A DNA stretch of 61,649 bases, the filler included, from Stramenopiles sp. TOSAG23-3 (lineage: Eukaryota): assembly GCA_900128585.1 (NCBI GenBank). It is 6 parts of 6 records of this genome, joined end to end, with 100 filler letters (N's around TTAATTAATTAA, not from the genome) between each part and the next. Parts side by side here need not be neighbours in the genome. Positions count along the whole stretch, not along the records: positions 30,910 to 41,101 come from LT642841.1; 5 more parts are not named here. One strand, 5' to 3'. How positions within the stretch are numbered: position 1 is the first letter of the stretch; the number at the start of each line of letters is the position of its first letter. A program made the position numbers and the translations under genes. This document shows, piece after piece, positions 19,001 to 51,476 of this stretch. A model generated the notes under the pieces. It worked only from the letters and a program-made list of their open reading frames with translations, had not been told where the DNA came from and ran no database searches.

Positions 19001-19739
19001 TAAAGTTCTTTTCACCACCGTCTTGCAAAGCAGTAAAAAAATTAGCCTGGTCTTCTTCAAAAACCGCCGCTGCTTTGCAGTCGGGGACATCTGGAATAGC
19101 GATAGCTTCAATATCGGAATCCATTTGGAATTTTAATTCATCACAAATATCAATAGCATCATCAAAATGAAGTAACCATGACTGTATTTCTGGGGTACGG
19201 CCACAAAAGTCCGTAAAATCTTCTCGTGTAAGGCAGTTGTCTTTGCTTTTATTCAAATACGCGAACGCTTCTTGAGATAGCAATTCCATTGACCTTTCGT
19301 CTGGCGGTGCAATTTGGCTTAATTTACATGCTCCTGTCATTGTGGACTTCAACAATAAAGTCATCTCGTCGATGGTCATTTCGCAACTTTCGTCGAAATC
19401 AAAAAGGTTAAATATATGCAGAATCTTTTCTGTTTTCGAGAGGCCAGAAACTAGGGTTAGGGCGGCAAGAGTTTCTAAAGCGTCGATCAGACCATTATTG
19501 TCAGTGTCCAAAACGCCTTCAAACAGCGTTTCGCAAAGTCTCTCTAATGCAGGTTTTCTGATATTCCCAAGAGGAGCTTGAAGAACTGAACAAATTTCTT
19601 TAAATTCTTCCATATTGATCCCGAACCCTTCGGCCACGTCATTGAAGCTTTCCCACAGGTCATATACAGCATTTCTTTGCAGGTTCACGAAAGGCAAAGC
19701 CCCTTCTTGAAAAAGCGCACGACCCAAGACTTGTCCCAT
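13077..19739 (-). CDS. EML5/EML6-like microtubule-associated WD40 protein (three HELP/TAPE units) with N-terminal EF-hands
   Basis: Three HELP motifs (LEWIHGYRAHD, LEWVHGYRSHDCRNN, MDFIYGYRSQDVRNN), three GH...ELWGL starts and many WD40 repeats. EF-hand loops DTDNNGLIDALE and DFDESCEMTIDE. Uninterrupted 2220-aa ORF. Confidence 0.93.
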   Translation of the reverse strand: MGQVLGRALFQEGALPFVNLQRNAVYDLWESFNDVAEGFGINMEEFKEICSVLQAPLGNIRKPALERLCETLFEGVLDTDNNGLIDALETLAALTLVSGLSKTEKILHIFNLFDFDESCEMTIDEMTLLLKSTMTGACKLSQIAPPDERSMELLSQEAFAYLNKSKDNCLTREDFTDFCGRTPEIQSWLLHFDDAIDICDELKFQMDSDIEAIAIPDVPDCKAAAVFEEDQANFFTALQDGGEKNFTPLKPWHGVLEHTTPTNPPSTDSSLPDESSLQLEWIHGYRAHDTQNTVQYTVLGDFVYSAGTVCVVCNPERHDQRYMMLHTGPVCELTLHPSGKICASAEIGKLPRIIIWDVGTCEILNGLRGFHQRAVTSMAFSPNGTRLLSIGQDIWHSLAVYDWRSNTPIYSAKTVKSKVLCCYFRNDNDFVTCGISHVTFWGGKKASRKRHEGILGKIGKKQNHISLASLIDGRVLSGTMTGHIYVWDGRNCAKTIKAHDKSINVLLVCKHGLLSGGRDGRVRLWALPSIEPGAVFDVGGLGSFNPRIRSLSWSADGTRLLVGTMGSEIYEVSAGDGSNFHSGPIIQGHCKHELWGLAMNPTKPEFCTVGDDHSVRLWDIKTKTLLKMVMLDTMARCCSYSPDGQVIVVGLGARIPGVARQKKMGAFVVLEATDLTIVHEARDSKEPISQLRFSQDGKTLAIATMDSSIYLYNVEDFTSKGRCKGHSGGVKHVDFSVDDQWIQSTCNQHELLYWNAYTGEQHKAAGSLKDVEWATWTCPLGWYVQGIWPKYNDYVDFTSVTRSEDSSLLATGDNYGRLQLWRFPVKEVGAARKTYYGHSESLSNLKFSPGDQYLVSISIDRCIFQWKHVMDDVDDLADDYNRDLDSEDEDDQKDGDIWDQPQINNVVNNEEMKIIFDMEEKAIAEEKADNFKPVKPWRGSIVAPTNPPAQNTDAPKEQLELEWVHGYRSHDCRNNVMYAISNSIVTHTGRLAIVMNKEGGGFQKFMSQHTSDIIAITINTEKNLVATADIGKIPRIIIWDVVTLQTISLLKGHHRRGVNVLHFSRDGEQLLAAGLDDFHSISIYNWKFGIMTSCFPGGLQKILAAQITPNGYGVIQAGIKHIKFHSIQGRNTVSQNGLLGKKGKNQTMLCIAWVGNRPVVGTENGKLYVFEGRRLIQTVPAHTGSVNALNFCSEGVVSGGKDGFVKLWNTSLEIKIEIKVSSLGSLQPSVRSVCWDPVDNRILIGTRGSEIYEVNAANGNDLNRGPVLQGHYAFELWGLSMHPQRKEFATVGDDQTLRIWSLKHRQVLRQSKLDTMARSCCYDPSGSKIIVGLGGRVGKGRQKKDGAFLVINEDDLSVAHESRDAKQWISDIKFSPDQNTVAIASRDNKIYLYDVPSAFELKAVMDKHNSFVHQIDFSADSAYLQSCCGAFEYLCSDAEDGAAIAAISTLKDVRWDTWTLPIGWPVQGTWPTYSDGTDVRTCDRSKFGNLLVTGDNYGRLRLWRYPALDPSAGNKLYYGHGNNISKVRFAPEDDYIVSIGRNDRAIMQWKVVPFELDSALRAEDSGEDSDIDREGFFEDLDSDTEDFMAIKPWVGSSIPPTVPPIATPAKPEVSVTMDFIYGYRSQDVRNNLFYNACGAIVYHSGKTGIIYDKGDHRQLFYSGHEGGDIICLAISPCGQYVATGDESKRPLIHIWNALNGNPVSILPEYHRRAVGLLSFSADGKQLISVGHDDNHTHALYTSLSGTWIDGYLQASSKGSRYKTLFATFVSAGEFHLVTGGRNQILFWQVNGKSFECSNGLFGRKGKEQPLLCGATNGRKVVTGTVSGHLYMWEDNRLSRAVKAHDSSVNVLRSIKIGYISGGKEGGVKIWDQFCNPLKAFAVDDFSPKPYLMSVRACDYDVERAVVIIGTASSEIFEVCYQSGRVSILVEGHYRDELWGLSTHPTIPELFATAGDDHTIRVWNTALRKMVKKVLVDTMVRAIDWSPDGSMIGAGMGGNVGRGRQKKDGAMVVVSTDSMSIIHQARDSREWISDVKFSPDGKSFAIGSNDNKIYVYDVQRDFSLKAKCEKHHSFITHFDFSEDSNYIQSNCGGYELHFFNAIDGEHVHSPSICKDVDWHTQTCTLGWYVQAIWPEYVDGVEILSADRSKSKKLVCTADESGIVKLFRYPVLQKGANFVNVYGHTSNCAEASFNSHDNFLITIGAKDRSIIQWKVEITETGN

Positions 19740-20514: not shown

Positions 20515-20614
20515 NNNNNNNNNNNNNNNNNNNNNNNNNNNNNNNNNNNNNNNNNNNNTTAATTAATTAANNNNNNNNNNNNNNNNNNNNNNNNNNNNNN
20601 NNNNNNNNNNNNNN
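20515..20614. other. Artificial contig linker
   Basis: N44-TTAATTAATTAA-N44. Confidence 0.98.
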
Positions 20615-30033: not shown

Positions 30034-30705
30034 ATGAATTTCCTTCGCAATTCTTTGTTTGCGATTGGCTTTCTGCTTGCCACTTCCTTGGAAGCGGCGG
30101 ACGTGAAGCCAGTCAAATGGCCGAATGAGTTTTCAGTTAGGTTTGTCAGCAATGTAACGTGGAACATCACTTCGAGGGAACAGGTGACTCCAATACCAGC
30201 AACTATGTATTACAATTGGGACATTCAAAGTCAACTTGTAGAGCACGGGGCTGGTGCGGTCGAGTGCCTTCATTTCTACAATTCCGCTCTGCCCTGTAAG
30301 CTTTACTTTACAAAGACTGGGCTTTACCGGGTGCTGGAGAGGCCGTTACCTCCGGGCGAACCAGAGTGCTGCTTGGATATGCCCCAAATCAAAGCATCCC
30401 CACCGAATTGGGCGATCGTCTCAAACGCAACATATGAAGGGGTTCAGAAAGATGTTTACAGCCAAATTGAGGCCGAATCGTTTTCATTTTTGTCGGCGGC
30501 TGGGCCGATGGGTCCACACAAATACTTCCAAACCGTCGCCACGAAGCTTCCACTGATTTTTACGTTTCCGGCCCATTCAGGGCGGCAGGATTACCATTTT
30601 GACCCAACGTCCATGTCAATAAGTCCCCAAGATCCGAAACTGTTCGCTTTGCCATCCGGATGCTTCAATGTCCTATGCAACAGCACAACAGGACAACATT
30701 ATTGA
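30034..30705 (+). CDS. Secreted Cys-containing protein, probably At4g14100/ependymin-related (LolA-like fold) family
   Basis: Signal peptide MNFLRNSLFAIGFLLATSLEA; motifs PVKWPNEF, MYYNW, ECC.....PPNW and DPKLFALPSGC. The family is recognised by eye only. Confidence 0.7.
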   Translation: MNFLRNSLFAIGFLLATSLEAADVKPVKWPNEFSVRFVSNVTWNITSREQVTPIPATMYYNWDIQSQLVEHGAGAVECLHFYNSALPCKLYFTKTGLYRVLERPLPPGEPECCLDMPQIKASPPNWAIVSNATYEGVQKDVYSQIEAESFSFLSAAGPMGPHKYFQTVATKLPLIFTFPAHSGRQDYHFDPTSMSISPQDPKLFALPSGCFNVLCNSTTGQHY

Positions 30706-30809: not shown

Positions 30810-30909
30810 NNNNNNNNNNNNNNNNNNNNNNNNNNNNNNNNNNNNNNNNNNNNTTAATTAATTAANNNNNNNNNNNNNNNNNNNNNNNNNNNNNNNNNNN
30901 NNNNNNNNN
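30810..30909. other. Artificial contig linker
   Basis: N44-TTAATTAATTAA-N44. Confidence 0.98.
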
Positions 30910-30946
30910 TTTTTCTAATTCGTAATCAATTGTCACATTGTTTAAA

Positions 30947-31738
30947 TTAATCACAAATCTGCACATATATTGTTTTACAAACCCCTGTGCCCTCGCAATT
31001 TATCTCGTTTTGTTGTACACAGTGTGTGTAGTGCGAAGAGGGAGTACTTGACGGGCACACCTTTTTGCAGTACTTCCCCCCCACGCAACGCCATGTACAC
31101 CCAATATTCGGGCGTCTTCTTAAGTGGCCCATGTTCCCCAGCCTTCGGGAGAACCTGGTGGGTGGAGAGATACGCCCGACCAGCTCGTCAAACTCGGGTG
31201 ACCTATTATCTTTTTTAACTCTCGCTCTAAGTTTGCGGCGAGGAAACTTCTTCGGGCCGACGTAATTCAGTGGACCATTCACGTCGTACAACGTGCTATC
31301 CATATCATTGCCAGATGTCCCGGCGCCATCGGTTGGAGAATCTGAAGAGAGTCCATTTGCAGCACTTTCTGGACCATTTGAAGTGTCGGAATCACGGCAT
31401 TGGCAAGCCATGCCGTCCGGCCCAACTTTCCAGCAAGTGCGGTATTTGCATTTGCTTGGCGATTTCCAGACACGCCCGACCAGCTCGTCAAACTCCTTGG
31501 GGGACCTATCTTTTTTAACAATCGCCCTAAATTTGCGGCGAGGAAATTTTTTGGGGCCGTCGTAAGTCAGCGGACGAGTTGATTCAAGCCTTTGACGGGT
31601 AGAAGGAAACGATCCCGCGTCTGTCAAATACCGAGCCAATCGTCCTTTTCCTGTTGAACCTTTCGCCATGACGCCGGGCGTGAAGCCATAGGTCAGCAAA
31701 GCGCTGCAAACAACTAGTTTCGAAATGTGCGCACCCAT
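30947..31738 (-). CDS. Secreted multi-module precursor: duplicated 34-aa basic/acidic cassette plus three 4-Cys peptides
   Basis: Signal peptide MGAHISKLVVCSALLTYGFTPGVMA. Cassettes lie at 31472-31573 and 31172-31273, exactly 300 bp apart. The Cys peptides are CKYRTCWKVGPDGMACQC, CTWRCVGGKYCKKVC and CVQQNEINCEGTGVCKTIYVQIC. Confidence 0.85.
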   Translation of the reverse strand: MGAHISKLVVCSALLTYGFTPGVMAKGSTGKGRLARYLTDAGSFPSTRQRLESTRPLTYDGPKKFPRRKFRAIVKKDRSPKEFDELVGRVWKSPSKCKYRTCWKVGPDGMACQCRDSDTSNGPESAANGLSSDSPTDGAGTSGNDMDSTLYDVNGPLNYVGPKKFPRRKLRARVKKDNRSPEFDELVGRISPPTRFSRRLGNMGHLRRRPNIGCTWRCVGGKYCKKVCPSSTPSSHYTHCVQQNEINCEGTGVCKTIYVQICD

Positions 31739-32426
31739 ATTGTAGTAAGCGATAAAGTTTCAATTGTTTTGTTTCTTCTCGTTCGATATTTATTTTTACT
31801 GTTTTGTGGTACTAAGGTTTGTTGTGTTTATTATTAAAACTCTTTCCAAAACTGTTATTAAATATATATTCAACGTAAAGAATTTTGAACAAGCCGACAA
31901 GCCTTTCTTTCCTTGTCGATGGGCAAAGACAAGATAAAAATATTTATGCGTGGTGGTGGGTAGTTATTATTAGTGAGGATGATGTAGTGGTATTATACGT
32001 AGTCAATCGAGAGGGCCAAAAAAAATATTATATTTCTTATTCTCCTTCTGTTTATATTAGACTATGCTGTGTAGAGGTTATCATATACCAACTTCAATGT
32101 TTTCTTCAGCAGCTGCTTAGCTTCAATAATTCAGCGAATTCATTATTGAATTATATTTACCTTGTAAATTATTACATCATTATATTAATGAATACTACGA
32201 AACTATTACGGTTTTCCAGTTCATTTTTACCGTAATACAAGTACACTTTCTTCCTATAACCCGACGACGACGAAGATGTAATATAAAAAATGCCGTTTGT
32301 TAAATTTTAAGTAGAATAATAATTTAAATTTATCTTCTTCATGTACCGCGAATGTGAACCTGCTCCTTCTGACCATTAAAGGTTCACTTTCCTTCATGTA
32401 CTGCGAGCTTATCTCTGCTCCTGTGA

Positions 32427-32584
32427 TTTTTCTAATTCGTAATCAATTGTCACATTGTAAATTAATCACAAATCTGCACAGTCACAACATTACAAACCCC
32501 TGTGCCCTCGCAATTTACCTCGTTTTGTTGTACACAGTGTGTGTGGTGCCAGGGAGTACTTGGAATCGAATCACGGCATTGGCA
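32427..32584 (-). pseudogene. 3' remnant of a paralog of the 30947-31738 precursor gene
   Basis: Reads *CQCRDSIPSTPWHHTHCVQQNEVNCEGTGVCNVVTVQICD*, followed by 3' UTR nearly identical to 30910-30946. It has no start codon and is preceded in frame by TGA TAA. Confidence 0.85.
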
Positions 32585-32600
32585 TTATCATGTTCCCTCT

Positions 32601-35600
32601 TCAACTCAAGCCGAACCCCCCGTCCTTCGCGGATCGGATACTCAAAAGCAACTTTTCAACCATAACTTTAGAGGAAGAGTACCGTGGCAATTTCAAAAGA
32701 TTCATGCACGTTGCAGCCGTGGGCAACCGTTCGTTGTCATTTGTGATCGGAACTTCTTGTATGCACAAAGGAGGATACAGCGCTTTGAACCCCATCAGAG
32801 GGGGGCGGGAGCAGGACGTCCAAAAGTGCAGCAAAAACCCACGATCTTCGTCGCTGAAGCTGTTCAAAGCCTCCCAGAATTGCCGTATGTACGGCTGGGA
32901 TGGGTGGTACCCTGACGCGTACGTGATAAATTTCGACATGTCTGCGATGTCAAAACTGCTCACAGAGCCCCCAATCAGCATTTGAACTTCCCCAGGGTTG
33001 AACATTCGCAAAAATTCAGTCGGTATGAGGTCACGAAAGCCACGTAAAAAGGCCTTTGACTGGGCAGAAATTTGCCGGTTCAGTCGGTAGTGCGCAAGCG
33101 AGTATATGTACTGAAGGCAGTTTTCGTTCGTAACGTTAATATTTGAGCCGTTCGGCACCAGATCCACAACTTGAAGTTCCCCATAGTCCTGCTGCATTGT
33201 CGTAAAGTTCAGGTCAGCATCCGCAACGTTGTCCACAGATTTTAGCTGCATCAGGTTCTGGTAAAGCCCAATGTCCAGCGATTTGATGTCGTCCACGTAA
33301 TTCCCCCGACCCAAAAGTTTGTTTAGGAAAAAGCCCGCGAACTGGGGTTCGATTAGGATTGATTCGTACACGGCCTTTCCTAGAATTCTGCCAAGGAATG
33401 CAAAGTGGTCCAAATGAGAACTGCCAGCAACGATGGCGGACGACGGGCTGGGGTAGAGAGCCCCCCCCTCGGCCTCCTTAAACATTCCGTACTGTGGATC
33501 AAACGCCCGTTTGCTAAGCTGAACCATGAACTCTTTGAACAGGCCACCGCCATCGATGCCAGCTTCTTCTATACCGTGCTCATCCACGAACGAAATTTGT
33601 ATTCTGCCTTTCAGGTTCCCTTTCAAGGGGTTAAGCGTGTTGTACGCATCTTCGTACAGCGAACCCCGTCTAACTTTAATTTTCACCCCATGGCCTGGTT
33701 CCTCGTAGTTTCCGTCTCGCTGTTGCCGCAACGTTTTGCTGAACAGTGCAACGCGATGGTCGAACGACATTACTTGCGGGATCAGGCGCAGCAACAACGA
33801 CGACCGGAACCGGGCATCTACCCCTAGTTTATCCATTGTGCTGCCAAACGCCCCGGCCTCTATGGAAACCTTCGGCCACTCCCACGAGCTTCCTGGGCAA
33901 AACGATTTTCGACAATTTCTTTCGTACAGCTTGTTGTACAGGTTGGACGCCGCGAGCACCAGCCTGGTACGGTGCAAAGGGTACGCGGCTGGGTCAAGGG
34001 ATGAGGGCTGTTCGTCCCACACCATGCGGTGCAGCAGTGCGCTCAGCAGGCTTACCAGGCGGTACTGTTCGGGCAGCTGGAACGGTATCTGCTTTTCGTA
34101 GAAGTCAATGTCGTCCAAGGCAACGAGCAAATTACCGTACATGGTGAAGAACAGGCATAGGGAATCTTCAACGTCCGAATCGCTCAGGCAATTGAGGCAG
34201 GCGGGACCGTCGTTTGCGTCGTCGCGCCCTCGGGGAAAGACTGCGCCCGTCTCGGCAAATCGTTTCAGATCGACCGCCTGCTTTAGGGCAGCCCAGTACT
34301 GCGGAATAATAGTTCGCCCGGCCTGCAGGGCCAGGGCGTTCAAAATGGTGTGCCCCGGGCCGTGATAAAGTACCGGTGTGACTAGAACCCCGGAGCGAGC
34401 ATTAATTTTGTTGTAAAACGCGCCCAGTTTCATCATCGTGGTCTTCTCAGACAGGTCCACCCGCACCCTGTCGTCGCTTAACGTTTTCTTCTTGGCAGTA
34501 TTACCACTGCCGCCTTCCGAACATTCCCCCAAGTCGGCAGACAGAACTGCACCAAAAATAGCTTTCGCGTGCGCAGTGTCCATCAACCCTGCATTGACCA
34601 GCTCTAGCATGTTGCTGTCCGCGCCCCGGTGAGCAGTCAGGGATGCATTGACCCGCTTCGTTCTGTGCCCTTGCAAAATCTTCTTCAGGTCGGTAGAAGC
34701 AGATAATTTGGCACTGCCCCCGGCCAGACCGTTTGCTTCTGTCGGTTGCCCTGGGGCGAACAAATCGCTGCCCTCTTCGTCGGAAGAAAGAGAGCTGCTG
34801 CGGTATCGTTCCCAGATTTTGCTGACAGTAGTCTTCTCTTCTGGGCTTAGAAAACAAACATCAGGGAGCCCGTCGATAAGTATGGCCAGGATGTTCACAT
34901 GGCAGACCAACATCTCCTTGTCGCGGAGGAGCACGCCAAAGACATCCTTGTGCTTCACTATGTACATCAGGTTTGCAAAGATCCAGTTGTAGTCAACGGG
35001 GACATTTTGCTCCGGGACCCATCGCATCATCGCATATAAGCAGCTGCGCCACATGTTTGGGATTTGGAACAAAGGGTGTATTAAATGCTTCATCAGGCTT
35101 ATTCTGGTCCCGGAGCTTGGCGCCGACAACATCGGCAACGGCAGGACAAATCGCGTAAACTCTTCGAAGGCGCTCGTGATGGCCGTGGATGATCGCTTGT
35201 GTTTTGCTGCGGACGAAAACGCACGAACTATCATGTCACACATGTTTTGTTGAAAATGGAGCATAGGGCTGGATCCCATCGCGGCTTCGCCGCCGCCACC
35301 GTTTGCGAAGGAATTCTCGATGGTATCCGCCTCCTTCAGCACTTTGATCAAGACCTGAATTAGACTTTCCCCGTATTTCGTCGTAAAGTTTTCTGACAGC
35401 AGCAGATGCAGCAGGACGAGATCGCACGCATTGTTCTCTTCCCTCTCCCCCCAAGACGACTCGCCCGTAATTAAATTCACAAGGTCAAGAACCAGCCTGA
35501 AGCTGCTCGACCGGTTGTCGGTAAAAACAAGCAACCCCAGGGCGCTTCGAAGGAAGGTGCTGACCTGAAACACCCAAGGCATGCTGGGGCAGCCTGCGCT

Positions 35601-36044
35601 GCCTGCCAGCGAGCGGTAGTTTACACGCTTGTCTTTCGCCCCGAAGCTTGCCCACAAAAAGTTACAAAGCAAAAGTATGCGTGGTCTATCTTGCTCAGGG
35701 CTGTAGCAGTGGAAAAAATTAAACGACTGAACGAGCGGGGACAGCACGTGAAGGGGAGGGACAAACTCTTTCCCCGTCGCCTTCAGGATCAGGGAAACCT
35801 TCTGCAGGTCCCCTGCTCGTTTGTCAAACAAAGCTCGGAACGTATCTCGTACCGTCTTGGCCACCCACCGCCCTCGAAAAACGCGCTGAATCTGGAGTGC
35901 AGCAGCCGCGTCTTTACGCGTCTTTTCCCTACGCTCCCTCTCTTGCCGAGCCCGTGACAACCGTTCTGCCCTTGAGATAAACCGGTTGTTAGTCCCTCCC
36001 ATCGACACCTTTTTCGAGGACGTCTTGCCATCGAAGAACGCCAT
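32601..36044 (-). CDS. HECT E3 ubiquitin ligase, UBE3C/UPL6-like, with N-terminal IQ motif
   Basis: MAFFDG..KKVSMGG, RARQERERRE, IQRVFRG; HECT motifs EEAGIDGGGLFKEF, FLGRILGKAVY, FWTSCSRPPLMGFKAL, RLPTAATCMNLLKLP and the GFGLS terminus. First ATG is 36044. Confidence 0.96.
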   Translation of the reverse strand: MAFFDGKTSSKKVSMGGTNNRFISRAERLSRARQERERREKTRKDAAAALQIQRVFRGRWVAKTVRDTFRALFDKRAGDLQKVSLILKATGKEFVPPLHVLSPLVQSFNFFHCYSPEQDRPRILLLCNFLWASFGAKDKRVNYRSLAGSAGCPSMPWVFQVSTFLRSALGLLVFTDNRSSSFRLVLDLVNLITGESSWGEREENNACDLVLLHLLLSENFTTKYGESLIQVLIKVLKEADTIENSFANGGGGEAAMGSSPMLHFQQNMCDMIVRAFSSAAKHKRSSTAITSAFEEFTRFVLPLPMLSAPSSGTRISLMKHLIHPLFQIPNMWRSCLYAMMRWVPEQNVPVDYNWIFANLMYIVKHKDVFGVLLRDKEMLVCHVNILAILIDGLPDVCFLSPEEKTTVSKIWERYRSSSLSSDEEGSDLFAPGQPTEANGLAGGSAKLSASTDLKKILQGHRTKRVNASLTAHRGADSNMLELVNAGLMDTAHAKAIFGAVLSADLGECSEGGSGNTAKKKTLSDDRVRVDLSEKTTMMKLGAFYNKINARSGVLVTPVLYHGPGHTILNALALQAGRTIIPQYWAALKQAVDLKRFAETGAVFPRGRDDANDGPACLNCLSDSDVEDSLCLFFTMYGNLLVALDDIDFYEKQIPFQLPEQYRLVSLLSALLHRMVWDEQPSSLDPAAYPLHRTRLVLAASNLYNKLYERNCRKSFCPGSSWEWPKVSIEAGAFGSTMDKLGVDARFRSSLLLRLIPQVMSFDHRVALFSKTLRQQRDGNYEEPGHGVKIKVRRGSLYEDAYNTLNPLKGNLKGRIQISFVDEHGIEEAGIDGGGLFKEFMVQLSKRAFDPQYGMFKEAEGGALYPSPSSAIVAGSSHLDHFAFLGRILGKAVYESILIEPQFAGFFLNKLLGRGNYVDDIKSLDIGLYQNLMQLKSVDNVADADLNFTTMQQDYGELQVVDLVPNGSNINVTNENCLQYIYSLAHYRLNRQISAQSKAFLRGFRDLIPTEFLRMFNPGEVQMLIGGSVSSFDIADMSKFITYASGYHPSQPYIRQFWEALNSFSDEDRGFLLHFWTSCSRPPLMGFKALYPPLCIQEVPITNDNERLPTAATCMNLLKLPRYSSSKVMVEKLLLSIRSAKDGGFGLS

Positions 36045-36459
36045 GTTTCTCAACGATCAGAATGTTCAAACGAATAAATAAATTGAGACAAACTTCTACC
36101 AACCCGTACACCTATCACTTGTTTGCTTTTCGAAAAAATGAACATGAATCATTACCAATTGTTCACGTTTATGAACGTAAGTGAATACAAAGCCTTCTTT
36201 CAAAATATTTAGTAAGTCCATAATAGTAAAAATGTTTTGTGCGTGATGTGATCGATGATATTTTTTTTCATTTTCAAAGTGTTATAATGTTGCTTATCAT
36301 ATTAAATATATTAATATAAATAATTAATAGCATAGGAATGTGTGGTACCGGTTCGAATCAATAGTTTATTGATATACATAACGTATTTCAATGAATTCAA
36401 TTTGAGGGACGAAGAAGAAGAAGGAGGTGGGCCACACCAACAATAATAATCTTTTCTGT

Positions 36460-36461
36460 TT

Positions 36462-36533
<72 letters not shown>

Positions 36534-36560
36534 TCNNNNNNNNNNNNNNNNNNNNNNNNN

Positions 36561-36634
<74 letters not shown>
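36460..36634. repeat. (TTTC)n microsatellite spanning an internal N gap
   Basis: Directly visible. Confidence 0.97.
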
Positions 36635-36637
<3 letters not shown>

Positions 36638-36650
36638 TCACAAGAAAGTA

Positions 36651-38093
36651 TCAGTTCAATTCTTTGATGCATAAATTGCATGCACATGTGAACCCATATT
36701 CAAGCAAACGTTTCTGACGTTCTTCTACGGTCGTAGGGTTGAAGCATTCTTCCTCACTTTCATTACTTGATGCACAGTCGTCTTCGTCGGCGAAGCTACT
36801 CTCGTCGAATTCCTCTTCCTCCTCCTCCTGAAAATGTTCCTTCAATTCAATGAACGTTCTCGATGGTGTATAGTTTCGAAACCGATTTGGGCCAAGGTCT
36901 TCCTCCACATTATCGATAGGTATGTACGTGATGCAAATTTCTTCGAGAGGTTGAATGTCCCTTGTTGCCACTAGTGAAGCTCTGTTTGACCCGTGCAAAA
37001 ACTCAATTGATGTATTCGGACGACAGCTGTGGTTTGCCAACGACAAAAGCGGGTAGAGTGCCGATCCTGAAATCGCAGTTGGCTCAATTTTACTTTTCAG
37101 CTTCGTCCCCAGGGACGACGGCATATACTTTCGATCCAACACCCGTGCGGTAGAACCAAGTAACGAAAAAAGCCGAAAGTATTCTTGGCAAGGCGAAGGG
37201 TCTATTTCCACGACCATGACATTGCAGGACAGCATCCCCATGATCTCTCCAAAGTTGCTAAGTGATACAATTTCAGAAAGAATATCGTCTAGTGCCCGGT
37301 GGGGCAAATGTTGCATCATGCGCGTTTTCATCGCGGTCAACAGCAGGTCTAACGCTGTCTTGCAAAGCGATTTTCTTCTAGCCTTTTCTTCCTTGCTGAG
37401 GTTCCCATGAACGTTCCACCATTTTGGGTGGACATACTCCCTCCACCAAGCGTATGTTCCACGCACTTCTTTGTCAAACGGCACCTTGCGCAGCACCAGC
37501 TGTGCAATTATTTTGGCAAACGCTTGAGCAACTAACAGCAATTGTGGCAAACCGTGTTCGGTGGCATATTCGACGTATCGCTCCACGCAAGGGACGCTCT
37601 GGCAAAACAGTGAATGCCCAATCCTCTCCCGTTCAAAACCTTCCCTGCGAGAGCAAGGTTCGCACCACACTCGTTTGCATGCATCGCAGCGGAAGCCGAC
37701 ACGCTCTTGGCGTTGTAGCCTACGATATGGTGGCAAAAAGCAACTCCCAATTTCCTTCAACTGTTTCCGCAAACCTAGAACGGGGTGGTTGCATCGTTCG
37801 CAAACGAGCTGGTTCGAGACTTCGTTACCGGGGGTCTGGATGTTAATAACGGGATCTTCAGTGATCAGTACCTCCCCACACTGAATTAGGCCGTTGGCAA
37901 CAAGTGCGTAACCAGAACCCTTACGATATATACATTTCAAACGAAAATGGCCGCAAGAGCGTTTCCGCTTGGTACCTGTTCGCTGCCCGGAAAACGAGAC
38001 GTCGTGGTCTATGTCGGAGCGTGCAATTGCTCGACTTCGGGACGTAGTAGGAAAGAGCCGTGTCGCCGAGCGACCTTTAACTTGGGACAACAT
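36651..38093 (-). CDS. SMYD-type (SMYD5-like) SET-domain lysine methyltransferase
   Basis: KGSGYALVA...GE, a MYND-like insert (CERC...CDAC...CEPC...H..FC), ALYPLLSLANHSCRPN, EEICITYI, an acidic insert and post-SET YGFTCACNLC. First ATG is 38093; the frame is open to 38255. Confidence 0.9.
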   Translation of the reverse strand: MLSQVKGRSATRLFPTTSRSRAIARSDIDHDVSFSGQRTGTKRKRSCGHFRLKCIYRKGSGYALVANGLIQCGEVLITEDPVINIQTPGNEVSNQLVCERCNHPVLGLRKQLKEIGSCFLPPYRRLQRQERVGFRCDACKRVWCEPCSRREGFERERIGHSLFCQSVPCVERYVEYATEHGLPQLLLVAQAFAKIIAQLVLRKVPFDKEVRGTYAWWREYVHPKWWNVHGNLSKEEKARRKSLCKTALDLLLTAMKTRMMQHLPHRALDDILSEIVSLSNFGEIMGMLSCNVMVVEIDPSPCQEYFRLFSLLGSTARVLDRKYMPSSLGTKLKSKIEPTAISGSALYPLLSLANHSCRPNTSIEFLHGSNRASLVATRDIQPLEEICITYIPIDNVEEDLGPNRFRNYTPSRTFIELKEHFQEEEEEEFDESSFADEDDCASSNESEEECFNPTTVEERQKRLLEYGFTCACNLCIKELN

Positions 38094-38399
38094 GGGACGG
38101 ACCAGTTGTAACGACCAGTTCGTATTGCAATGGCTTTCCTTTTTTTCCTCTAGAACATTGTATTTAGAGGATATCTTCTTCGCTTGTGAAAAGCTGGTTT
38201 GGTTTCCATTATTGCGCTCGGTGCACGTATAATATGTGCCCAGAAGAAGATTCACAGTGTTGTTTTGACCCTATAGACACAGCATAGACAAAAAATACAG
38301 GCGTTTTTGATTATATTATTGAATGATGAAGAAAAAAAAATGGGAAGAAAAAAAAAAAAGAAGAAAAATTATTAATTCACACTTAATTATATTAAAATA

Positions 38400-40241
38400 T
38401 TAAATTCCCACCAAACAACGAACCATGCAAACGCAACCTTCGACACGTTCCCATACACCAAGACCATAGTAGAACTTTGCCAACCCCTCCGTAAACGTCG
38501 CAGAGCGGCCTTGGACCGGGTAATCCAACAATGGGGGGAGAACCAAGCTGGTCGTGAGCCAGGAGAGCTTGTTTTTCGTCAACGACTTCATCGAACAGCA
38601 TTGGCGAAGCCCCTCAGGGCCACCGAAACGACCAAAGCCGGAGGACCCGACACCCCCGAACGGCAAATCTTGAATCATGTAGTTCACTCCAAAATCGTTC
38701 AAATTGCACATCCCTACCTTCAAATTCTCCGCAATTTTCTCCCCACGTTCCTGGCTCGACGAGAAGATGCTACTCCCTAGCCCAAACTCAGAGTTGTTGG
38801 CCATCTTGAGCATGTCCTCATCGGTCGAGTACCGAAACACTACCATGAGGGGCCCAAAGGCTTCTTCGTGAAAAATTCTCATCGAGTCGTCAACGCCAAC
38901 CAAAATGGTCGGCTCGAAAAACAAACCGTCCAGGCTTTCGTTGCGCTTCCCCCCGACCAGCGCGCGCGCCCCTTTTGACAACGCATCGTTGACAAGGGTC
39001 TCGATGATGTGCAACTGCCCCGGCATCGTCGTTGACCCCACGTCGAACACGCCTTTGGTGGGTTGGCCCTGGCGCAGCGCCCGCACCCGTTTCACGGCTT
39101 CCGAAATGAACGCATCGTAGATCCCATCTTGGACGAGCACGCGCTCTACCCCAATGCAGTTCTGGCCAGCGTTTTGGTAGCACCCTCGGATAAGGAGCGA
39201 AAAGACGCCCTTTAGGTCTGCATCATCGCACACTACAAACGGGTCCTTCCCCCCCAGCTCCATGACGCACGGAATGCACCGGACTGCTGCTGCTTTCAAC
39301 ACAAGCTTTCCCACCTTGGTAGAGCCGGTGAAAATAATTTTGTTTATGTGCGATTGCACCAACGCCGCACCCGCATTCGGAAAGCCCGTGACGAGCTGCA
39401 CCAAATCCGGTGAGTGCCCAGACGCATTCAGCACCTCCTTGACGAGCTTAATGCCGAACATAGAGCTCCACGACGTGTGTTCGGATACTTTGATGGCCAC
39501 GGCATTTCCCGAGAAAAGGCCAGATATAACGTGGTTAATAAGGTTATGGAACGGGTAATTGAACGGCGAAATGATAGCCAGGACACCCAGGGGCTCGTAC
39601 GATACAACGGCATCTTTGTAGAACATCAAGCGGTCCGCCTTCCTATATTGTGGCTTCAGCACGTCCTCCCCGTTGTCAATCACCCATTGCAACTTCTCCA
39701 ACGACGGAATGATCTCCCCAAAATTTGCCCCGAGCTTGGTCTTCCCGCTGTCGTGCACGCACACGTGGGCAATATCAACCTGGTAGTCGATAATGGCGCG
39801 AATAAACGCTCGCATAAGATCGCGCCTCGTTTCAAAGCTCGTCTTGGCCCAATCCTTTTGCGCCGCCTTTGCCTTGTCCACTAAATCAAAGACTTCCTCC
39901 TCGTTCAGCGCTGGAACCTCGCCCAGGTGTTCCCCGGTCGCCGGGTTGTAGCACTGGACTTTGCCCGGCCTGGCCTCGTCTAACAGGGGCATGGTCGAGC
40001 TGTTTGCTCGTTTGGTCTGCTTTTCCCACGTCCCGCGACTCCCCCCCTCTGGAAACGTCAGTTGGACACGGGGCGCTCGCCTCTGCCTGTGCAAAAGGTA
40101 GTACGTAAGACAGCACAATCCCCCGTACGTGTAAAGAACCACGGGGGAAGTGTTCTGCAGCCACCCCAAGAGTGCGGCGAAGGTGTTTTCAACCCCAAAA
40201 TACGCCAGGGCGGCGGCAGCGCCTAGATAATAAAGCTTCAT
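38400..40241 (-). CDS. Membrane-anchored aldehyde dehydrogenase, ALDH22A1/Msc7-like
   Basis: N-terminal hydrophobic segments; motifs VQCYNPATG, ISPFNYPFHN, KVSE, FTGS, catalytic ELGGKD and NAGQNC, EEAFGP, LPFGG..SGFGRFGGPEGLR. Confidence 0.93.
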   Translation of the reverse strand: MKLYYLGAAAALAYFGVENTFAALLGWLQNTSPVVLYTYGGLCCLTYYLLHRQRRAPRVQLTFPEGGSRGTWEKQTKRANSSTMPLLDEARPGKVQCYNPATGEHLGEVPALNEEEVFDLVDKAKAAQKDWAKTSFETRRDLMRAFIRAIIDYQVDIAHVCVHDSGKTKLGANFGEIIPSLEKLQWVIDNGEDVLKPQYRKADRLMFYKDAVVSYEPLGVLAIISPFNYPFHNLINHVISGLFSGNAVAIKVSEHTSWSSMFGIKLVKEVLNASGHSPDLVQLVTGFPNAGAALVQSHINKIIFTGSTKVGKLVLKAAAVRCIPCVMELGGKDPFVVCDDADLKGVFSLLIRGCYQNAGQNCIGVERVLVQDGIYDAFISEAVKRVRALRQGQPTKGVFDVGSTTMPGQLHIIETLVNDALSKGARALVGGKRNESLDGLFFEPTILVGVDDSMRIFHEEAFGPLMVVFRYSTDEDMLKMANNSEFGLGSSIFSSSQERGEKIAENLKVGMCNLNDFGVNYMIQDLPFGGVGSSGFGRFGGPEGLRQCCSMKSLTKNKLSWLTTSLVLPPLLDYPVQGRSATFTEGLAKFYYGLGVWERVEGCVCMVRCLVGI

Positions 40242-40769
40242 GGCCGGCCGCGCGAGTGTAAAACAAAGTGTTCAATCGATTGCTGTTAGCTTGTGGATAA
40301 TGTTAATGTATGTCTTGATTTCTTTCCTTTTAATTTGTAAAGTTTTCAAGTAGATTTATATATAGTATAAACAAAATACAATTGAGGTGTTTGGTGGAGA
40401 TATGGTTCAATTGTTGTGTTGTCTCTCTTTGTATATTATATAAATCATCATTATTATTAATTAATATAATAATAATAATAAAAAAAAGAAGATACTCTTC
40501 TTTTACTACTTCTAACATTATATAGAACTAGACTAGGACTAACACACCACCCAACAAAACAACTTCGAACAACAACGACGACACCACGAGCACGAGAGGA
40601 CGAAAATGGGTTGAATAATTCTTCTAATGCTCTGTCGTGTATTTATAATTATTATTAGTCCTATAGCTATATTTAAAATACGTATTTCCAGACTCTTCAA
40701 TGACGTAGTTATTGGCATTAATATTTTATTATTTAATTATACCGGTACGGTAATAATACCGTACCTCTG

Positions 40770-41053
40770 GAAGGAAAGAAGGAAGGAAGAGAAGAGAAGG
40801 AAGACATGACGGAAGACAATGAAGGAAGAGAAGGAAAGAAGAGAAGGAAAGAAGAGAAGGAAAGAAGAGAAGGAAAGAAGAGAAGGAAAGAAGAAAGGAA
40901 GAGAAGACGGAAGAAAATGAAGGAAGAGAAGGAAAGAAGAGAAGGAAAGAAGAGAAGGAAAGAAGAGACGGAAAGAAGAGAAGGAAAGAAGAGAAGGAAA
41001 GAAGAGAAGGAAAGAAGGGAAGGAAAGAAGGGAAGGAAAGAAGAGAAGGAAGG
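40770..41053 (+). repeat. Polypurine minisatellite, about 13-bp unit GAAGGAAAGAAGA
   Basis: Directly visible, almost purely G/A on the plus strand. Confidence 0.9.
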
Positions 41054-41101
41054 AGTCAGGAGGAAAATAAGGATAATAAATAAGCCATTCCATTTTATTA
41101 T

Positions 41102-41201
41102 NNNNNNNNNNNNNNNNNNNNNNNNNNNNNNNNNNNNNNNNNNNNTTAATTAATTAANNNNNNNNNNNNNNNNNNNNNNNNNNNNNNNNNNNNNNNNNNN
41201 N
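41102..41201. other. Artificial contig linker
   Basis: N44-TTAATTAATTAA-N44. Confidence 0.98.
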
Positions 41202-41550: not shown

Positions 41551-44500
41551 ATGGATAATGAGTCGGACAAGAGTGTATATACAGACGACAATCCTGCCAT
41601 GACCACGAACTTACTTAGGAACAATTCCAAAGACTTTGCCCATGTTAATGGTGGCAAAAAGAGACCGCCAATGGACTCAGACAAAGACTTGGAGTCGCAG
41701 GAAGCAGTGGCCATGAACGAAGAAGATCGCTCCAATGACCCCCGCAACAAGAATGTGTGGAACGCTAACACCTGGAAAGACAATACCCTTCCAGTTGGGC
41801 CAGACCTATTTACCAAATTTCCCCTGATGGAATTTCGTTCACGAAGGAAAAAGGTATCTGACTGCAAAGCATTCCTTCTACCGATATTAGTACTTTGTTG
41901 GTCGTTGGTTCTGTTTACGGCTTACTTTTGGATGACTTCCCAGAAAACTGTCGGACATTTGCGGCTCGATCAGGTGTCTAACATCACCATAAGCACAACA
42001 GGATGCGACGTCATTTTCCACCATCCAAAAATGGCGCAGAGCTGGAATTTTCTAGGTCTGGGCAAAGCATTCACGCAGGATTCGTGCGAATTCTTGATTG
42101 CTTCACAAGAGCATCTTTCACCATGCATTTCGTGGATATACAATGGCAAGTTTGACCTTTCAAATTTGTTCACTGACCAGACCTACAGGAATTCCAGCGA
42201 ATCCGATGGGAGTGGCGTTGTTGCCAGGAATACATCAACAGGAGTCGTTGTAAAAGCGTTCGAAAGATTAAACTCTTTTACGCCTTGCAAAGTCAACATT
42301 TGGGCAGCAGACCCGCTAAAAACAGTGACAATAATCAGTACTATCAGGCACATTGACGTCAAGAAAATCGACTCTGAAAGCATAAACCAATCGTGCTGTT
42401 TAGTCCGATGTCAGACGGGTCTGTTTCAGTTGAAGGCATTGGAAACCATGATCTAGCAGCAGTGGCCAGGTGGACTTTGTTCTTCAGCATTAGTCTTGGC
42501 GCCCTTACATTTTGCTGTTGCGGCTGCAAAGCAATACATTTGCCAAAAAAAATAATTACAAAAAAATATAAAGAGATGATCAAGAAGAAACGAAAACTAA
42601 GTCTTACTGAGAGGCAAATACACCTGGAAAGAAGGTCAGCGAAGCTTTGATTGGAGAGGGAGGAAAACGGTTTTTTTTGGGACGACAAAGAGCTATGGAA
42701 AAAGTACAACGATGAAAAGAAGACAAGAAGAGCAAAGAAGAGGAAGAAAGATAACGAAAAACAGCGCAGGCAAACGAATATCAATTTGCATGAAAACAGC
42801 TATTGCATGAACGTACCGTTTTTTATGGATTCAGAAAAAATTGAATTTATAGATTGTGCAATAATGTCACTTAATAATGTACTAGACATTGAACTAAGAA
42901 AAGCGAATGTGGGAGAAGAAATCGCGACGGCTGTACATGGAAACAAGGCTAAGTGCATGTCGGGGTGTAGCAAACAAGCACTTAAAAACAATTGCTCCGC
43001 GATGTTGCGTCCTTTCTTCTCTTTGTTGAGAAAACTTTCGAGCATAGTGTATTCTACTGAAGACACTTCTGACATTGAATGTTTGCGTAACAAGTTTACC
43101 ACGCTTCAGAACAGCGACAGTTTTGCGCTTTCTGTCAAGAACATCGAGGACTTGGAGAAAAAGTTAATCAAGATCGAGAGTGCCTGGTTAGAGTACAAAA
43201 AAAACCAAATCGGTAATATTGACAAGCTGTCTTTTTGGGAAGTACCTTTAATTTTCTATGAGTTTCGAATCAGGCCTTCCAAGGCAGGCGGCCTGGAAGT
43301 TTTTTTAAGAAACCATCTTTTGTACGAGAAAAAGGTATTGGCTCAATGGTGGTCGGGCTTAAAAACCAATCAATGGCTGTGGATTCTCACTAAGTTCAAG
43401 ATTAAATCTTGCATGAATTTAAAAATGCAATATGTCAGAGAAACTGCAAAGATAAAAATTTCTGATGGAAATAATGACCACTCTGAGCCAGCAGGAAAAT
43501 TTGAAGAAAGCTTTCGTAAGCTTTCCAACTCTAAAGGTATTTCACTGGCCAACCTACAGGCACGGTACGATGAGTATCGTTTCGACAGACAATTGAAAAA
43601 AAAACAAGTCAATGTAAATGCTATCGAAAAAATGCTAAGCCGAGAGTGCTTTGATATAAACTATAACCGGGAAGAACGGCGGTTAACCGAAGTCGTTTTT
43701 CTAAACAAACCAGTGACCGGCATAGACTATCTCTACGAGTCATTGATCTGGCTTGGGCTGGTTGCCTCACAGGAATTTTTGATACTATTCTTATTGTTGC
43801 CCGGTGCGGCAATCATACTCTTTCACCACCACCAGGCCAAGTTTTTCACTGCATCGCCCATGTTTCAGTACGAAGACTTGCGATATCGTCCATATACTAT
43901 CGCTAGAGTGTATGAGATGGAACCCCTGTTCGTCCCTATCGTTCTTGGTTTACTGTACTTTGTGTTGGCAAACCTTGACTTGTTCATATATTACGTGTCC
44001 TCTAGTTTATTGGAAAAACCTAATTCAGACAAATATTTCAAGACAAAAGATACTGTTAGGCAAAGAGAAAGACCTACAAAATCTAGTTCGGGAACCATGC
44101 GCAAACTGCAAAACATTGCAAAAACGTCTTGCTGTTTCTGTTGTGACTCAAGATCGCTGCACGAGTACGAAATTTACAGAAAAAATATACTCAGGGATGG
44201 GACTGTTGACAGCTATATTTGTATCAAGAAAGACGATGAAGGTAACGTGGAAGTTACATCCATGACAAAAGACTCAATAACCCGTGTTCCGACAACTAAA
44301 GACAAATGCAAATCAGTCCTGTATGCTATTGCACGAAGGGTTTGCAGGATTATCCATTTCTTGTTCAGACTGTCCATTTACTTGTTACTGTCTTTTTACT
44401 TGGCGTATGCTACCACTGTCCTGATATGGTGGATTTTGGGGGCAATAATTAACCCAGAGAGAATGCTAGCTTTTGCATCTGCAGGAATGGTCTTCGTTGG

Positions 44501-49545: not shown

Positions 49546-50880
49546 ATGTTATTGGCTAACAATGGGAAGAATACTGAAGCAGCGTCGTTGTGCGAAATTC
49601 TAGTTGGCCATCTTGTTCTTGATGGCGGCGCTTGCCTTGCCACGGGCTTGCCTTACTACGACCCAAGGATCCAAAAGTTGTTGTACGCGCAACGATCAAA
49701 GTTGCTCAAATTTTTAGAAAGTTACCCTACTATATTTCATTGCACGCGGCCCACGGAACGCTCGCATATCGTGTCACTTGTGAATGTTGATAAAACTGTT
49801 GACTTTAGCAGTCACATCAGAAGCGCCCTCTCCGCGTGCAATGAAGAGACAGTCGTCTCATCGCTAGAGAACAAGGCATTGGCTTTATTGAATTCGCGTA
49901 TGTTGAAGTTGCAAAGACGAAGCGTAAAGCGAAAAGAAAGCGTCGACAAAGTGGAACTGGGTGCACCGGTTCACTGGCTCGTTAAAAGGCTTCACACGGA
50001 CCTGCACACTTACCTTCGTTTGAAGCGTTTTTACTGCAACGATGCGCGCCCAAACTTGACAGGCGCAATAGTAGGGTCAGCAGAATGGCACCTGGCAGCT
50101 TTGAAGGAGCTGCAATCTTTTCTTGGCGCCCGTCCCACGTTGTTTCTGGTGATAGGATCACTAGTGTTCCCGCTGAAAGAACCGAAAACAGTGGTGGCAC
50201 CACCAAAATTGAAGCACGCCAATCATTTGGTGGCTACCGATGCCGAAGGCATGTTCAGTGTGACTTGCGGGAGGTCTGCAAAAGAAATGGTATTACTGGT
50301 GAAAAAGTATTACATGAAGTGGAATGGAGGAGGATGCCGAACACGTTTTGTTGACATGACTGCAGGCGTGGGTAGCATCGCCGTGAAATCTTTTCGACAC
50401 TTTGACCGTGTCGATTGCTACGAGACCGATCGAACGAGGTACCAGTTACTCCTGGAGAATGTTAAAAAACAATCCTCCTGTGGGTCTAGCACTGCCGAAG
50501 TGACGTGTTACTGCGAAGATAGCATAGCGGGTATGCAGCAGAGAAATAGGGCTCCTGTATGCGCCATTTTTGACCCACCGTGGGGTGGATTGGGTTATGA
50601 CAAATCGAACGAGATTCTTTTCAACAAGAAGCCGTTGCGTACTATTCTCGAAGAGCTTGCGGGCACGGGGGTTAATGGCGATGGTAGGCGCAGCAAACCG
50701 CCGGTTTCATTGGTTGTGGGCATAAAGTTACCTCTGGGGTACGATATCAAGAGACATTTATTGCCACAAAACGATGATGGCAAAACTGACGTTCGGCCGA
50801 CTTTCGTCACCCTTGTGCATGTGAAGAAAATTTGGAAGCAGCTGTTTGCCGTCTTCTACCTGGGGAGAGCCGTGACATGA
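49546..50880 (+). CDS. Trimethylguanosine synthase (Tgs1/Tgs2)-like cap methyltransferase with an unrecognised N-terminal region
   Basis: VDMTAGVGSIA (motif I), YETD..RY.LL..NV, IFDPPWGG..Y and IKLP motifs. First ATG is 49546. Confidence 0.8.
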   Translation: MLLANNGKNTEAASLCEILVGHLVLDGGACLATGLPYYDPRIQKLLYAQRSKLLKFLESYPTIFHCTRPTERSHIVSLVNVDKTVDFSSHIRSALSACNEETVVSSLENKALALLNSRMLKLQRRSVKRKESVDKVELGAPVHWLVKRLHTDLHTYLRLKRFYCNDARPNLTGAIVGSAEWHLAALKELQSFLGARPTLFLVIGSLVFPLKEPKTVVAPPKLKHANHLVATDAEGMFSVTCGRSAKEMVLLVKKYYMKWNGGGCRTRFVDMTAGVGSIAVKSFRHFDRVDCYETDRTRYQLLLENVKKQSSCGSSTAEVTCYCEDSIAGMQQRNRAPVCAIFDPPWGGLGYDKSNEILFNKKPLRTILEELAGTGVNGDGRRSKPPVSLVVGIKLPLGYDIKRHLLPQNDDGKTDVRPTFVTLVHVKKIWKQLFAVFYLGRAVT

Positions 50881-51376: not shown

Positions 51377-51476
51377 NNNNNNNNNNNNNNNNNNNNNNNN
51401 NNNNNNNNNNNNNNNNNNNNTTAATTAATTAANNNNNNNNNNNNNNNNNNNNNNNNNNNNNNNNNNNNNNNNNNNN
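51377..51476. other. Artificial contig linker
   Basis: N44-TTAATTAATTAA-N44. Confidence 0.98.

Follow-up and report, generated by a model that had tools for sequence, protein, structure and literature searches.

The window analysed here is a stretch of 61,649 nucleotides from Stramenopiles sp. TOSAG23-3, and the gene in question is an open reading frame (ORF) of 263 amino acids at 30947..31738 on its minus strand. The ORF runs from an ATG to a TAA stop codon at 30947-30949 and is bounded upstream by an in-frame TGA at 31760-31762. Its GC content is 0.51 as compared to 0.32 in the approximately 690 nt upstream (the intergenic region 31739-32426). Judged by the comparisons described below, the protein, which we call P0001, belongs to a family which is real, undescribed and restricted to the lineage of an uncultured marine eukaryote. 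As far as the sequence can tell, the gene may encode a secretory-pathway polyprotein precursor which is processed into several peptides, and we hold the chances of this reading to be evenly balanced. From the N- to the C-terminus the modules of the putative precursor are:

31664..31738, minus strand: candidate signal peptide, residues 1-25, with a hydrophobic core at residues 8-19 and V-M-A before the proposed cut.
31574..31663, minus strand: basic pro-region, residues 26-55, net charge +5 by charge count.
31472..31573, minus strand: cassette copy 1, residues 56-89, net charge +6, delimited by repeat comparison.
31388..31471, minus strand: slot 1, consisting of a short linker, core A and R-D-S, with predicted hairpin strands at residues 102-105 and 109-112 (predicted local distance difference test, pLDDT, about 54).
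31274..31387, minus strand: acidic spacer rich in Ser, Asp and Gly, residues 118-155, predicted to be disordered (residues 115-155 have a net charge of -7).
31172..31273, minus strand: cassette copy 2, residues 156-189, net charge +7, delimited by repeat comparison.
31100..31171, minus strand: basic linker, residues 190-213, net charge +6, with RR and RRR sites, in the position of the relatives' amphipathic basic linker.
31055..31099, minus strand: core B, residues 214-228, net charge +4, C-x3-C-x5-C-x3-C, with a predicted hairpin at residues 215-219 and 223-227.
30950..31021, minus strand: C-terminal tail, residues 240-263, net charge -2, C-x7-C-x5-C-x7-C, with a predicted hairpin at residues 240-249 and 253-262.

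Twelve of the 13 cysteines of P0001 fall in three groups of four: 97, 102, 112 and 114 in core A (C-x4-C-x9-C-x-C, net charge +2), 214, 218, 224 and 228 in core B, and 240, 248, 254 and 262 in the tail. The charge alternates along the protein, with +2 and +4 for the cores, -7 for the acidic spacer and +6 and +7 for the cassettes. The candidate signal peptide has a Kyte-Doolittle peak of 2.5 (over nine residues) at residues 8-16, which is followed by V-M-A. The initial annotation of this DNA had listed three four-cysteine segments, a 34-residue cassette present twice and a number of basic sites (KK, RRK, LVGR, SRRL and LRRR) which convertases could cut. The three segments and every one of the sites are found in the translated ORF, and repeat search and translation place the two cassette copies exactly 300 nt apart.

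In the DNA the cassette is seen as two direct repeats, D1 (69 nt at 86%) and D4 (28 nt at 96%). At the protein level 26 of the 34 residues are identical in an ungapped comparison, and 29 of 33 aligned pairs when two one-codon indels are introduced. The two copies have 6.5 synonymous differences in 23.7 sites and 4.5 non-synonymous differences in 75.3 sites (pS 0.27, pN 0.06). Because synonymous differences exceed non-synonymous ones, the cassette appears to be kept as a protein and not by chance, and on this codon comparison, in which the counts are small, it is under purifying selection.

Relatives of P0001 were searched for in several ways. A word-seeded protein search gave 14 matches among 324 candidates, an exhaustive phmmer scan of 1.84 billion representative proteins gave nine relatives at E up to 0.001, and of 5244 candidates in a profile search 17 matched. 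The assemblies that contain the relatives are all from JGI or ENA and are marine metagenomes without exception; none of the relatives has a Pfam domain, and they are named "hypothetical protein" at most. The stretch itself is present at least partly in 20 of the 24 listed sequencing runs, which belong to 14 studies, and these runs are marine metagenomes with the exception of one coded as an organism and one without label. The initial annotation had suggested that the cassette should recur in relatives with different cysteine cores, and paralog-like variants of exactly this kind are seen in the alignment and the module maps. It had also named membership of a known folded domain as an alternative for the cassette. 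This is not borne out: Pfam gives no family for P0001 (E up to 1), the sequence search of the PDB gave chance matches only (MccF at E 0.71), and AlphaFold predicts disorder over the cassette. There was no usable match in the ESM Atlas, and a Foldseek search of the PDB with a model of the C-terminal part (residues 190-263) returned nothing (best E 6.5). Among proteins of 30-90 amino acids no relatives were found. At the DNA level a search by alignment pattern gave 110 metagenome and 35 viral matches, none of which was confirmed. Nine loci which were picked up with a 20-nt word of the cassette were rejected as chance matches, as tblastn shows that only an 8-residue word is shared.

The family can be described as a conserved frame in which cores are exchanged. 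The shared signal and pro-region opens 31 of 50 family proteins. All 31 agree in residues 1-18, and residue 19 is F or V in them. To compare the modules we calculated mean identities among unique sequences at the protein level, from the 28 of these 31 proteins which have both bounds of slot 1. The signal and pro-region has a mean identity of 0.92 (nine unique versions), the acidic spacer 0.85 (three unique versions among 19), cassette 2 0.89 (three among 19) and the tail 0.87 (four among 16). For slot 1 the mean falls to 0.44 and the lowest value is 0.15, so that the leader is far better conserved than the product region (0.92 versus 0.44). After the leader follow a cassette, either full or as an N-terminal variant without the acidic end, a linker ending in K or R, and a cysteine core. 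Next in order stands the acidic spacer or, in its place, a basic amphipathic linker with RR and KK at its flanks; further cassette-core units follow, and the tail is always last. In the P0005-type relatives the first cassette is without its C-terminal half and is still found upstream of cores. According to the module maps relatives carry up to four 4-cysteine peptides.

The 16 distinct core strings fall into three cysteine frameworks, and a fourth framework and one cysteine-free core, a Pro/Trp-rich segment, were recognised by eye. The frameworks are C-x4-C-x8/9-C-x-C, with three sequence families; C-x3-C-x5-C-x3-C; C-x3-C-x10-15-C-x2-3-C, with six variants differing by loop indels and substitutions; and C-x2-C-x2-C-x11-C. 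A K or R is found directly before the first cysteine in 19 of 21 distinct core contexts. After the last cysteine all 21 contexts carry a short motif, which is x-[D/G]-S in 18, D-S in one and P-S-S in two. The idea of variable cores put forward in the initial annotation is thus right in that different cores sit in the same frame, and has to be modified in that the cores of the family are drawn from about five types, which recur in mosaic fashion with modest point changes, and are not freely hypervariable. P0001 itself is nearest to the P0002 cluster (98% in aligned columns), from which it differs by the lack of one core with its linker, 44 amino acids in all, at K96/C97. The P0002, P0007, P0013 and P0015 forms recur on separate contigs 5, 9, 9 and 12 times, respectively, and some of these contigs are of 16-62 kb, the longest being 61.8 kb. 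There are sequence hints that the truncated P0013 type may be decaying. In the P0013 cluster P0035 and P0036 have each lost one core cysteine, by changes of C to R and C to F.

A second type of leader exists. In P0014 and P0015 the same cores and tail are found behind a different N-terminus, which resembles a textbook signal peptide and is followed by one or two 6-cysteine domains, each ending in P-K-R-R-L. The same second leader is found in P0018 and P0019 with ankyrin repeats as cargo and a C-terminal end of the form C-x-G-C-S-L-C-P.

The structure of P0001 was predicted with AlphaFold using the family alignment. The mean pLDDT is 41.8 and 211 of the 263 residues are below 50. The sole elements predicted are three beta-hairpins (102-105/109-112, 215-219/223-227 and 240-249/253-262), one for each cysteine segment, and when residues 190-263 are folded alone the last two hairpins are found again, with a mean pLDDT of 56.4 and 13 residues at 70-90. 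For the core B hairpin the block means of the pLDDT are 59 and 57 with the family alignment and 64 and 68 when folded alone. It should be noted that the cysteine positions add up pairwise to the same sum in core B (214+228 = 218+224 = 442) and in the tail (240+262 = 248+254 = 502), and both segments therefore fit two cross-strand disulfides in a hairpin; core A fits such a register less well. The spacing of core B had been described as close to that of beta-hairpin peptides, and the cross-strand register together with the predicted hairpin agrees with this. We conclude with low confidence that the cysteine segments may form beta-hairpins. Since the cassette, the spacer and the linkers are predicted to be disordered, they are probably not part of the folded domain of a known family.

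The C-terminal peptide was originally counted among the variable products. This is at variance with what is found in the family, where the tail is the most conserved cysteine module, is anionic, and has relic copies behind unrelated genes. Of the 32 family proteins shown at full length (P0001-P0015 and 17 cluster members), 23 have it at their end, the rest being mostly of the truncated P0013 type or fragments. We also considered that the tail is a non-coding repeat which the ORF happens to enter. This was rejected: the tail is read as coding because its cysteines survive the replacement of a 4-codon patch and because it ends 23 of the 32 proteins. Going by these comparisons it may be a constant tail and not a variable product.

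A relic of the 3' end of a paralog is present upstream of the gene:

32462..32584, minus strand: copy B, in which the final two cysteines of a core A are followed by linker, tail and stop codon.

This relic is found 17 nt after the stop codon of a HECT ubiquitin ligase gene in a different frame, with two stop codons directly upstream, and is followed by the same start of a 3' untranslated region (UTR) as in the precursor gene. It is the only further copy of the gene found within the window. A complete core A joined directly to the tail (joint 32567>31389) is seen in four of four runs compared, from which it follows that the relic is real and longer in other strains and not an assembly slip. 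One contig from an oligo-dT library goes from that core into a short ATT/TAA repeat and then into the 3' end of the HECT gene. A further case is P0016, an unrelated protein of 486 amino acids from outside the window, which has no signal-like start and no Pfam domain and ends in frame with the 4-cysteine tail. P0016 and copy B together suggest that the tail and the 3' UTR have been copied to the 3' ends of other genes; the P0016 contig may, however, be chimeric. No Pfam family was found for P0015 and P0017 either.

Just 3' of copy B there is a dispersed repeat (32335-32448). Its depth is 6-50 times that of the flanks in the three deeper sequencing runs (X15, X18 and X1), and it has many different loose ends. 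The repeat is about 70-110 nt long with an internal direct repeat, and other copies are found on other contigs of the window at 50907-51022, in sense orientation and 27 nt after the ORF at 49546-50880 has stopped, and at 12784-12851. The repeat could represent a small mobile element or else an element that 3' UTRs have in common. The contig of the precursor gene ends exactly where the dispersed repeat would begin, which explains the contig break at 30910.

Three RNA libraries, each from a different study, contain contigs that span portions of the ORF and of its 5' flank within 31195-31935. In the oligo-dT run four of six contigs are at least 99% alike to the window, and those of its listed contigs that have no more than one difference map to the start codon, to the intergenic stretch and to copy B. 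Two loose ends at 31391, which were translated by hand, lead into a P0008-type core end in X15 and into a P0007-type core end in X17 (oligo-dT), in both cases joined to the acidic spacer, and X18 has a 12-nt insertion at 31570 which is the P-I-P-R insertion of the P0005 type. As these ends and the insertion match modules of the relatives, variant forms of the gene exist in RNA libraries. The gene is likely to be transcribed, as far as such contigs can indicate. The support by transcripts holds for the family, through the RNA-library contigs, and it is not clean, as intergenic DNA is covered too.

We propose the following scheme for how such a precursor could work. In the endoplasmic reticulum the cysteine segments would be oxidised to two-disulfide beta-hairpins. 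Endoproteases cutting after basic residues, either Kex2/furin-like or cathepsin-like, would free the cores at their N-termini; the acidic spacer would offset the positive charge of the cores up to the point where it is taken off by a second cut, which would fall behind the conserved C-x-[D/G]-S. Further products may be the basic amphipathic linkers, which have RR and KK on either side. Unequal recombination between the repeated cassettes and spacers would reshuffle the cores among gene copies; the mosaics, the 44 amino acids by which P0001 differs from P0002 and the relic copies could all arise in this way, because the cassette and spacer repeats offer sites for it. The data show the anatomy, the family, the contrast in conservation and the basic residue ahead of the cores, and at low confidence they predict the hairpins, whereas secretion, cleavage, disulfide pairing and activity are inferred. 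The comparative data strengthen the precursor reading without proving it.

A number of observations speak against this scheme. No basic site is found after the cores, and a second protease must therefore be assumed. The two of the 21 core contexts that have no K or R directly before the first cysteine are those of core B, where this position is a G and RRR lies five residues upstream. The net charge of core A is just +2 and the tail is anionic. Every confidence value for the structure is low, and Foldseek found no match. The exact 263-residue form is absent from a collection of 15 billion proteins, and all relatives come from short-read metagenome assemblies, in which repeats can be misjoined. 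The RNA evidence consists of contigs and not of reads, and none of the three RNA runs covers 30910-31080. Most of the RNA contigs are 90-99% alike to the window and consequently stem from relatives. X15 and X17 cover the intergenic region 32000-32235 too, so that carry-over of DNA or read-through is possible. Of the contigs listed, a large number end at 31446/31447; two extend across this point, one in X1 and one in X15, with differences from the window at 15 and 11 positions.

The same modules could be those of a secreted protein which is never cut and which would be a modular protein of the extracellular space or of organelle contents (a surface coat, an adhesive, or a matrix protein of an extrusome or a vacuole), with charged, disordered linkers between small disulfide hairpins and the tail used for sorting or anchoring. 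This explanation has a modest claim on our belief. The tail and the leader are the most conserved parts, as sorting or anchoring signals would be; the cores have no basic site behind them; matrix proteins too alternate acidic and basic disordered blocks; and the alternative leader is used by other cargo, the ankyrin repeats. It is harder to reconcile with the K or R which precedes the first cysteine in nearly all contexts and with a basic linker flanked by dibasic sites. Furthermore, whole cores are swapped or lost while the frame is unchanged, which better suits independent products. It would surprise us if the diversity, and perhaps the 263-residue form itself, were mostly an assembly artefact around a fast-evolving orphan gene without any special peptide logic. 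Assemblers of short reads would in that case have put the repeated cassettes of one or two real genes, or of strain variants, together in false combinations. The forms recur independently in clusters of 5-12, some on the long contigs mentioned above, the slot 1 cores differ by substitutions and indels within the cysteine loops and not by joins alone, two such cores run into the acidic spacer in contigs that come from RNA libraries of two different studies, and the cassette copies in one contig differ mostly at synonymous sites. An artefact would on the other hand account for the position of the gene at a contig end beside a dispersed repeat, for the lack of the exact protein in the large collection, for the many run contigs which break at module borders, and for the tail variants, in which two variable spots appear in every one of the four combinations.

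Two further explanations concern the fate of the protein in the cell. The start M-G-x-x-x-S-K of P0001 fits the loose N-myristoylation pattern, the K/R-rich cassettes resemble bipartite nuclear signals, and relic tails stand behind genes of a cytosolic type (the HECT gene and P0016). The protein could thus be attached to the cytosolic face of a membrane, or the cassettes could direct it to the nucleus, and the cysteines would bind metal. This is very unlikely, as a hydrophobic stretch of 12 residues directly follows the start, the cysteines come in fours and in hairpin register, the same cores stand behind what looks like a classic signal peptide in P0014 and P0015, and the relic behind the HECT gene is out of frame with stops before it. 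We give hardly any credence to a precursor of the type known from peptides that are made by the ribosome and modified after translation (RiPPs), in which the cassette would serve as recognition leader for an enzyme whose gene lies elsewhere, and the cores would be modified beyond cutting and oxidation. A conserved leader-like cassette is indeed found ahead of each variable core, and fungal repeat precursors of the ustiloxin type combine Kex2 sites with modification, as described in PMC7329392. The 10-kb contig is, however, without a candidate enzyme, cores still follow the P0005-type first cassette which has lost its C-terminal half, and nothing in the cores indicates a known modification. The initial annotation stated that no modifying enzyme is encoded on this contig. 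This is correct for the piece, where none is found among the HECT, SET-domain and aldehyde dehydrogenase genes, and the statement covers 10 kb only.

If P0001 is a precursor which is processed into peptides, its products might be membrane-active peptides that are antibacterial or kill prey; this is possible, and we would call it doubtful. Signalling or pheromone peptides are less likely than these and appear improbable. A wider proposal, which we hold to be doubtful as well, is that of a combinatorial arsenal in an abundant uncultured marine protist, where the constant scaffold of leader, cassette and spacer is the recombination frame for interchangeable warheads. The warheads would comprise the four frameworks of disulfides, besides linear Trp/Pro/Arg-rich and amphipathic peptides and even the ankyrin domain on the sister leader. 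Proteolysis would release them to kill or manipulate bacterial prey or competitors, and the constant tail with its 3' UTR would spread to the ends of unrelated genes.

Several known systems resemble this family in part. The propeptide spacers in the Ib-AMP precursors of Impatiens balsamina are acidic. PMC4695807 describes Ib-AMPs as several basic peptides of about 20 amino acids with four cysteines and two disulfides from one transcript, present in near-identical copies with a CC and C-x3-C motif and I-III/II-IV bonds. As in Ib-AMP there are several 4-cysteine peptides per precursor, here two cationic cores and an anionic tail in 263 amino acids. Unlike Ib-AMP, P0001 has different cysteine frameworks, no CC, and a C-x3-C in core B only; furthermore the organism is a protist and not a plant, and sequence likeness is not to be expected and none was seen in Pfam, no direct comparison with Ib-AMP having been made. 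The comparison with Ib-AMP drawn in the initial annotation therefore holds for several basic 4-cysteine peptides in one precursor and fails for the CC/C-x3-C motif.

The fungal Kex2-processed repeat proteins (KEPs) have a signal peptide, repeats and di-basic repeat borders, and include secreted pheromones, toxins and effectors (PMC6339444). In the definition given there the repeat is the released peptide, and at least three similar fragments have to result from cutting at KR, RR or KK (PMC6339444). The definition also asks for a predicted signal peptide with no transmembrane segment and for a Kex2-type protease encoded by the genome. P0001 has a hydrophobic, signal-like start with V-M-A, the repeats and the di-basic sites. 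It differs in that the repeated unit is the spacer and is present in two copies only, and in that the presumed products differ from each other. Cutting in silico at KR and RR gives six fragments and cutting at KK gives six, and at most two of them, halves of the cassette, are alike, so the suggested likeness to Kex2 repeats does not extend to this definition. Two-disulfide beta-hairpin antimicrobials such as tachyplesin, polyphemusin, gomesin, arenicin-3 and capitellacin are, according to PMC13001179, cationic peptides of 14-25 residues with two cross-strand disulfides which are cut from proproteins, and all of those listed there are from animals. Core B with its C-x3-C-x5-C-x3-C, a charge of +4 and a predicted hairpin may be comparable, the pLDDT of the predicted hairpins being just 54-68. 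Its loop is one residue longer than that of tachyplesin, it has no C-terminal amidation signal, and the precursor has no BRICHOS or cathelin-type prodomain (none in Pfam).

The toxin superfamilies of cone snails and the peptide precursors of frog skin have a conserved prepro region and a variable mature peptide. The family described here is similar in having a near-invariant leader, a divergent slot 1 and an acidic propiece beside a cationic product. It has two to four presumed products, unlike the single one of each of those precursors, a constant tail, and variation which is largely a swapping of modules. Naegleriapore B and the Dictyostelium Apl proteins are saposin-like polyproteins of amoebae and a protist example of several antimicrobial or pore-forming peptides per precursor, according to PMC11542183. 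In contrast to their helical six-cysteine domains of about 80 amino acids, there is no Pfam saposin match and no predicted helix here, and the predicted elements are beta-hairpins. The family is a member of none of the systems compared. What is distinctive for it is the mixture of cysteine frameworks in one precursor, the swapping of modules, the constant anionic tail and the sister leader with other cargo.

A word search of the literature found no such family described in protists, and matching by words can miss papers. In the literature examined on gene expression of marine bacterivorous flagellates the words "lysozyme" and "cysteine-rich" are absent, and "antimicrobial" occurs once, in the title of a reference. 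If the products are real, this would, going by these word-based searches, be the first described multi-peptide disulfide-hairpin precursor family of a free-living marine protist. Such peptides might play a part in how marine protists and bacteria interact, since parts of the stretch occur in 14 studies of marine samples. If an arsenal of the kind outlined exists, it would be a unicellular counterpart of the logic of cone-snail toxins or polymorphic toxins. The cores are short, 15-20 residues with two disulfides, so their synthesis and testing would be cheap, and the module swapping is a natural experiment on how a peptide arsenal diversifies in a unicellular eukaryote.

The precursor gene lies on the piece 30910-41101 of the window, with its stop codon 37 nt from the contig end, and what is present of its 3' UTR is:

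30910..30946, minus strand: 3' UTR stub of 37 nt, similar to 32427-32461 and running to the contig end.

On the same piece and strand are the HECT ubiquitin ligase (32601-36044), a SET-domain protein and an aldehyde dehydrogenase. For the dehydrogenase the ESM Atlas gives a eukaryotic affiliation with no finer rank. The bacterivorous flagellate suggested in the initial annotation goes further than this, as the data speak for a eukaryote present in marine metagenomes. A long (TTTC)n microsatellite at 36500-36600 is broken by a gap of 25 N. The window consists of contigs, arranged by length, of 10207, 10207, 10195, 10192, 10175 and at least 10173 bases, which are joined by five identical linkers of the form N44-TTAATTAATTAA-N44 at 10208-10307, 20515-20614, 30810-30909, 41102-41201 and 51377-51476; the pieces flanking a linker are without genomic linkage. 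The remaining pieces carry ordinary eukaryotic genes for a pepsin-like protease, Snf7, an EML-type protein, a transglutaminase, a BART-domain protein, a RabGAP and a Myb protein, and the long ORFs of the pieces are uninterrupted. No Kex2-type protease is encoded on the six contigs of the window; the one pepsin-like protease, at 1726-3474, is on a different contig from the precursor gene. An Rfam scan of the whole window gave no matches. On the neighbouring contig an ORF at 30034-30705 on the plus strand codes for 223 amino acids with a signal-like hydrophobic start, several N-x-S/T sites and no Pfam family. The GC content at third codon positions of long ORFs ranges from 0.38 to 0.69 across contigs (13077-19739 and 42807-46928 compared with 32601-36044 and 38400-40241), which reflects either a strong variation from gene to gene or the presence of contigs from more than one organism in the assembly.

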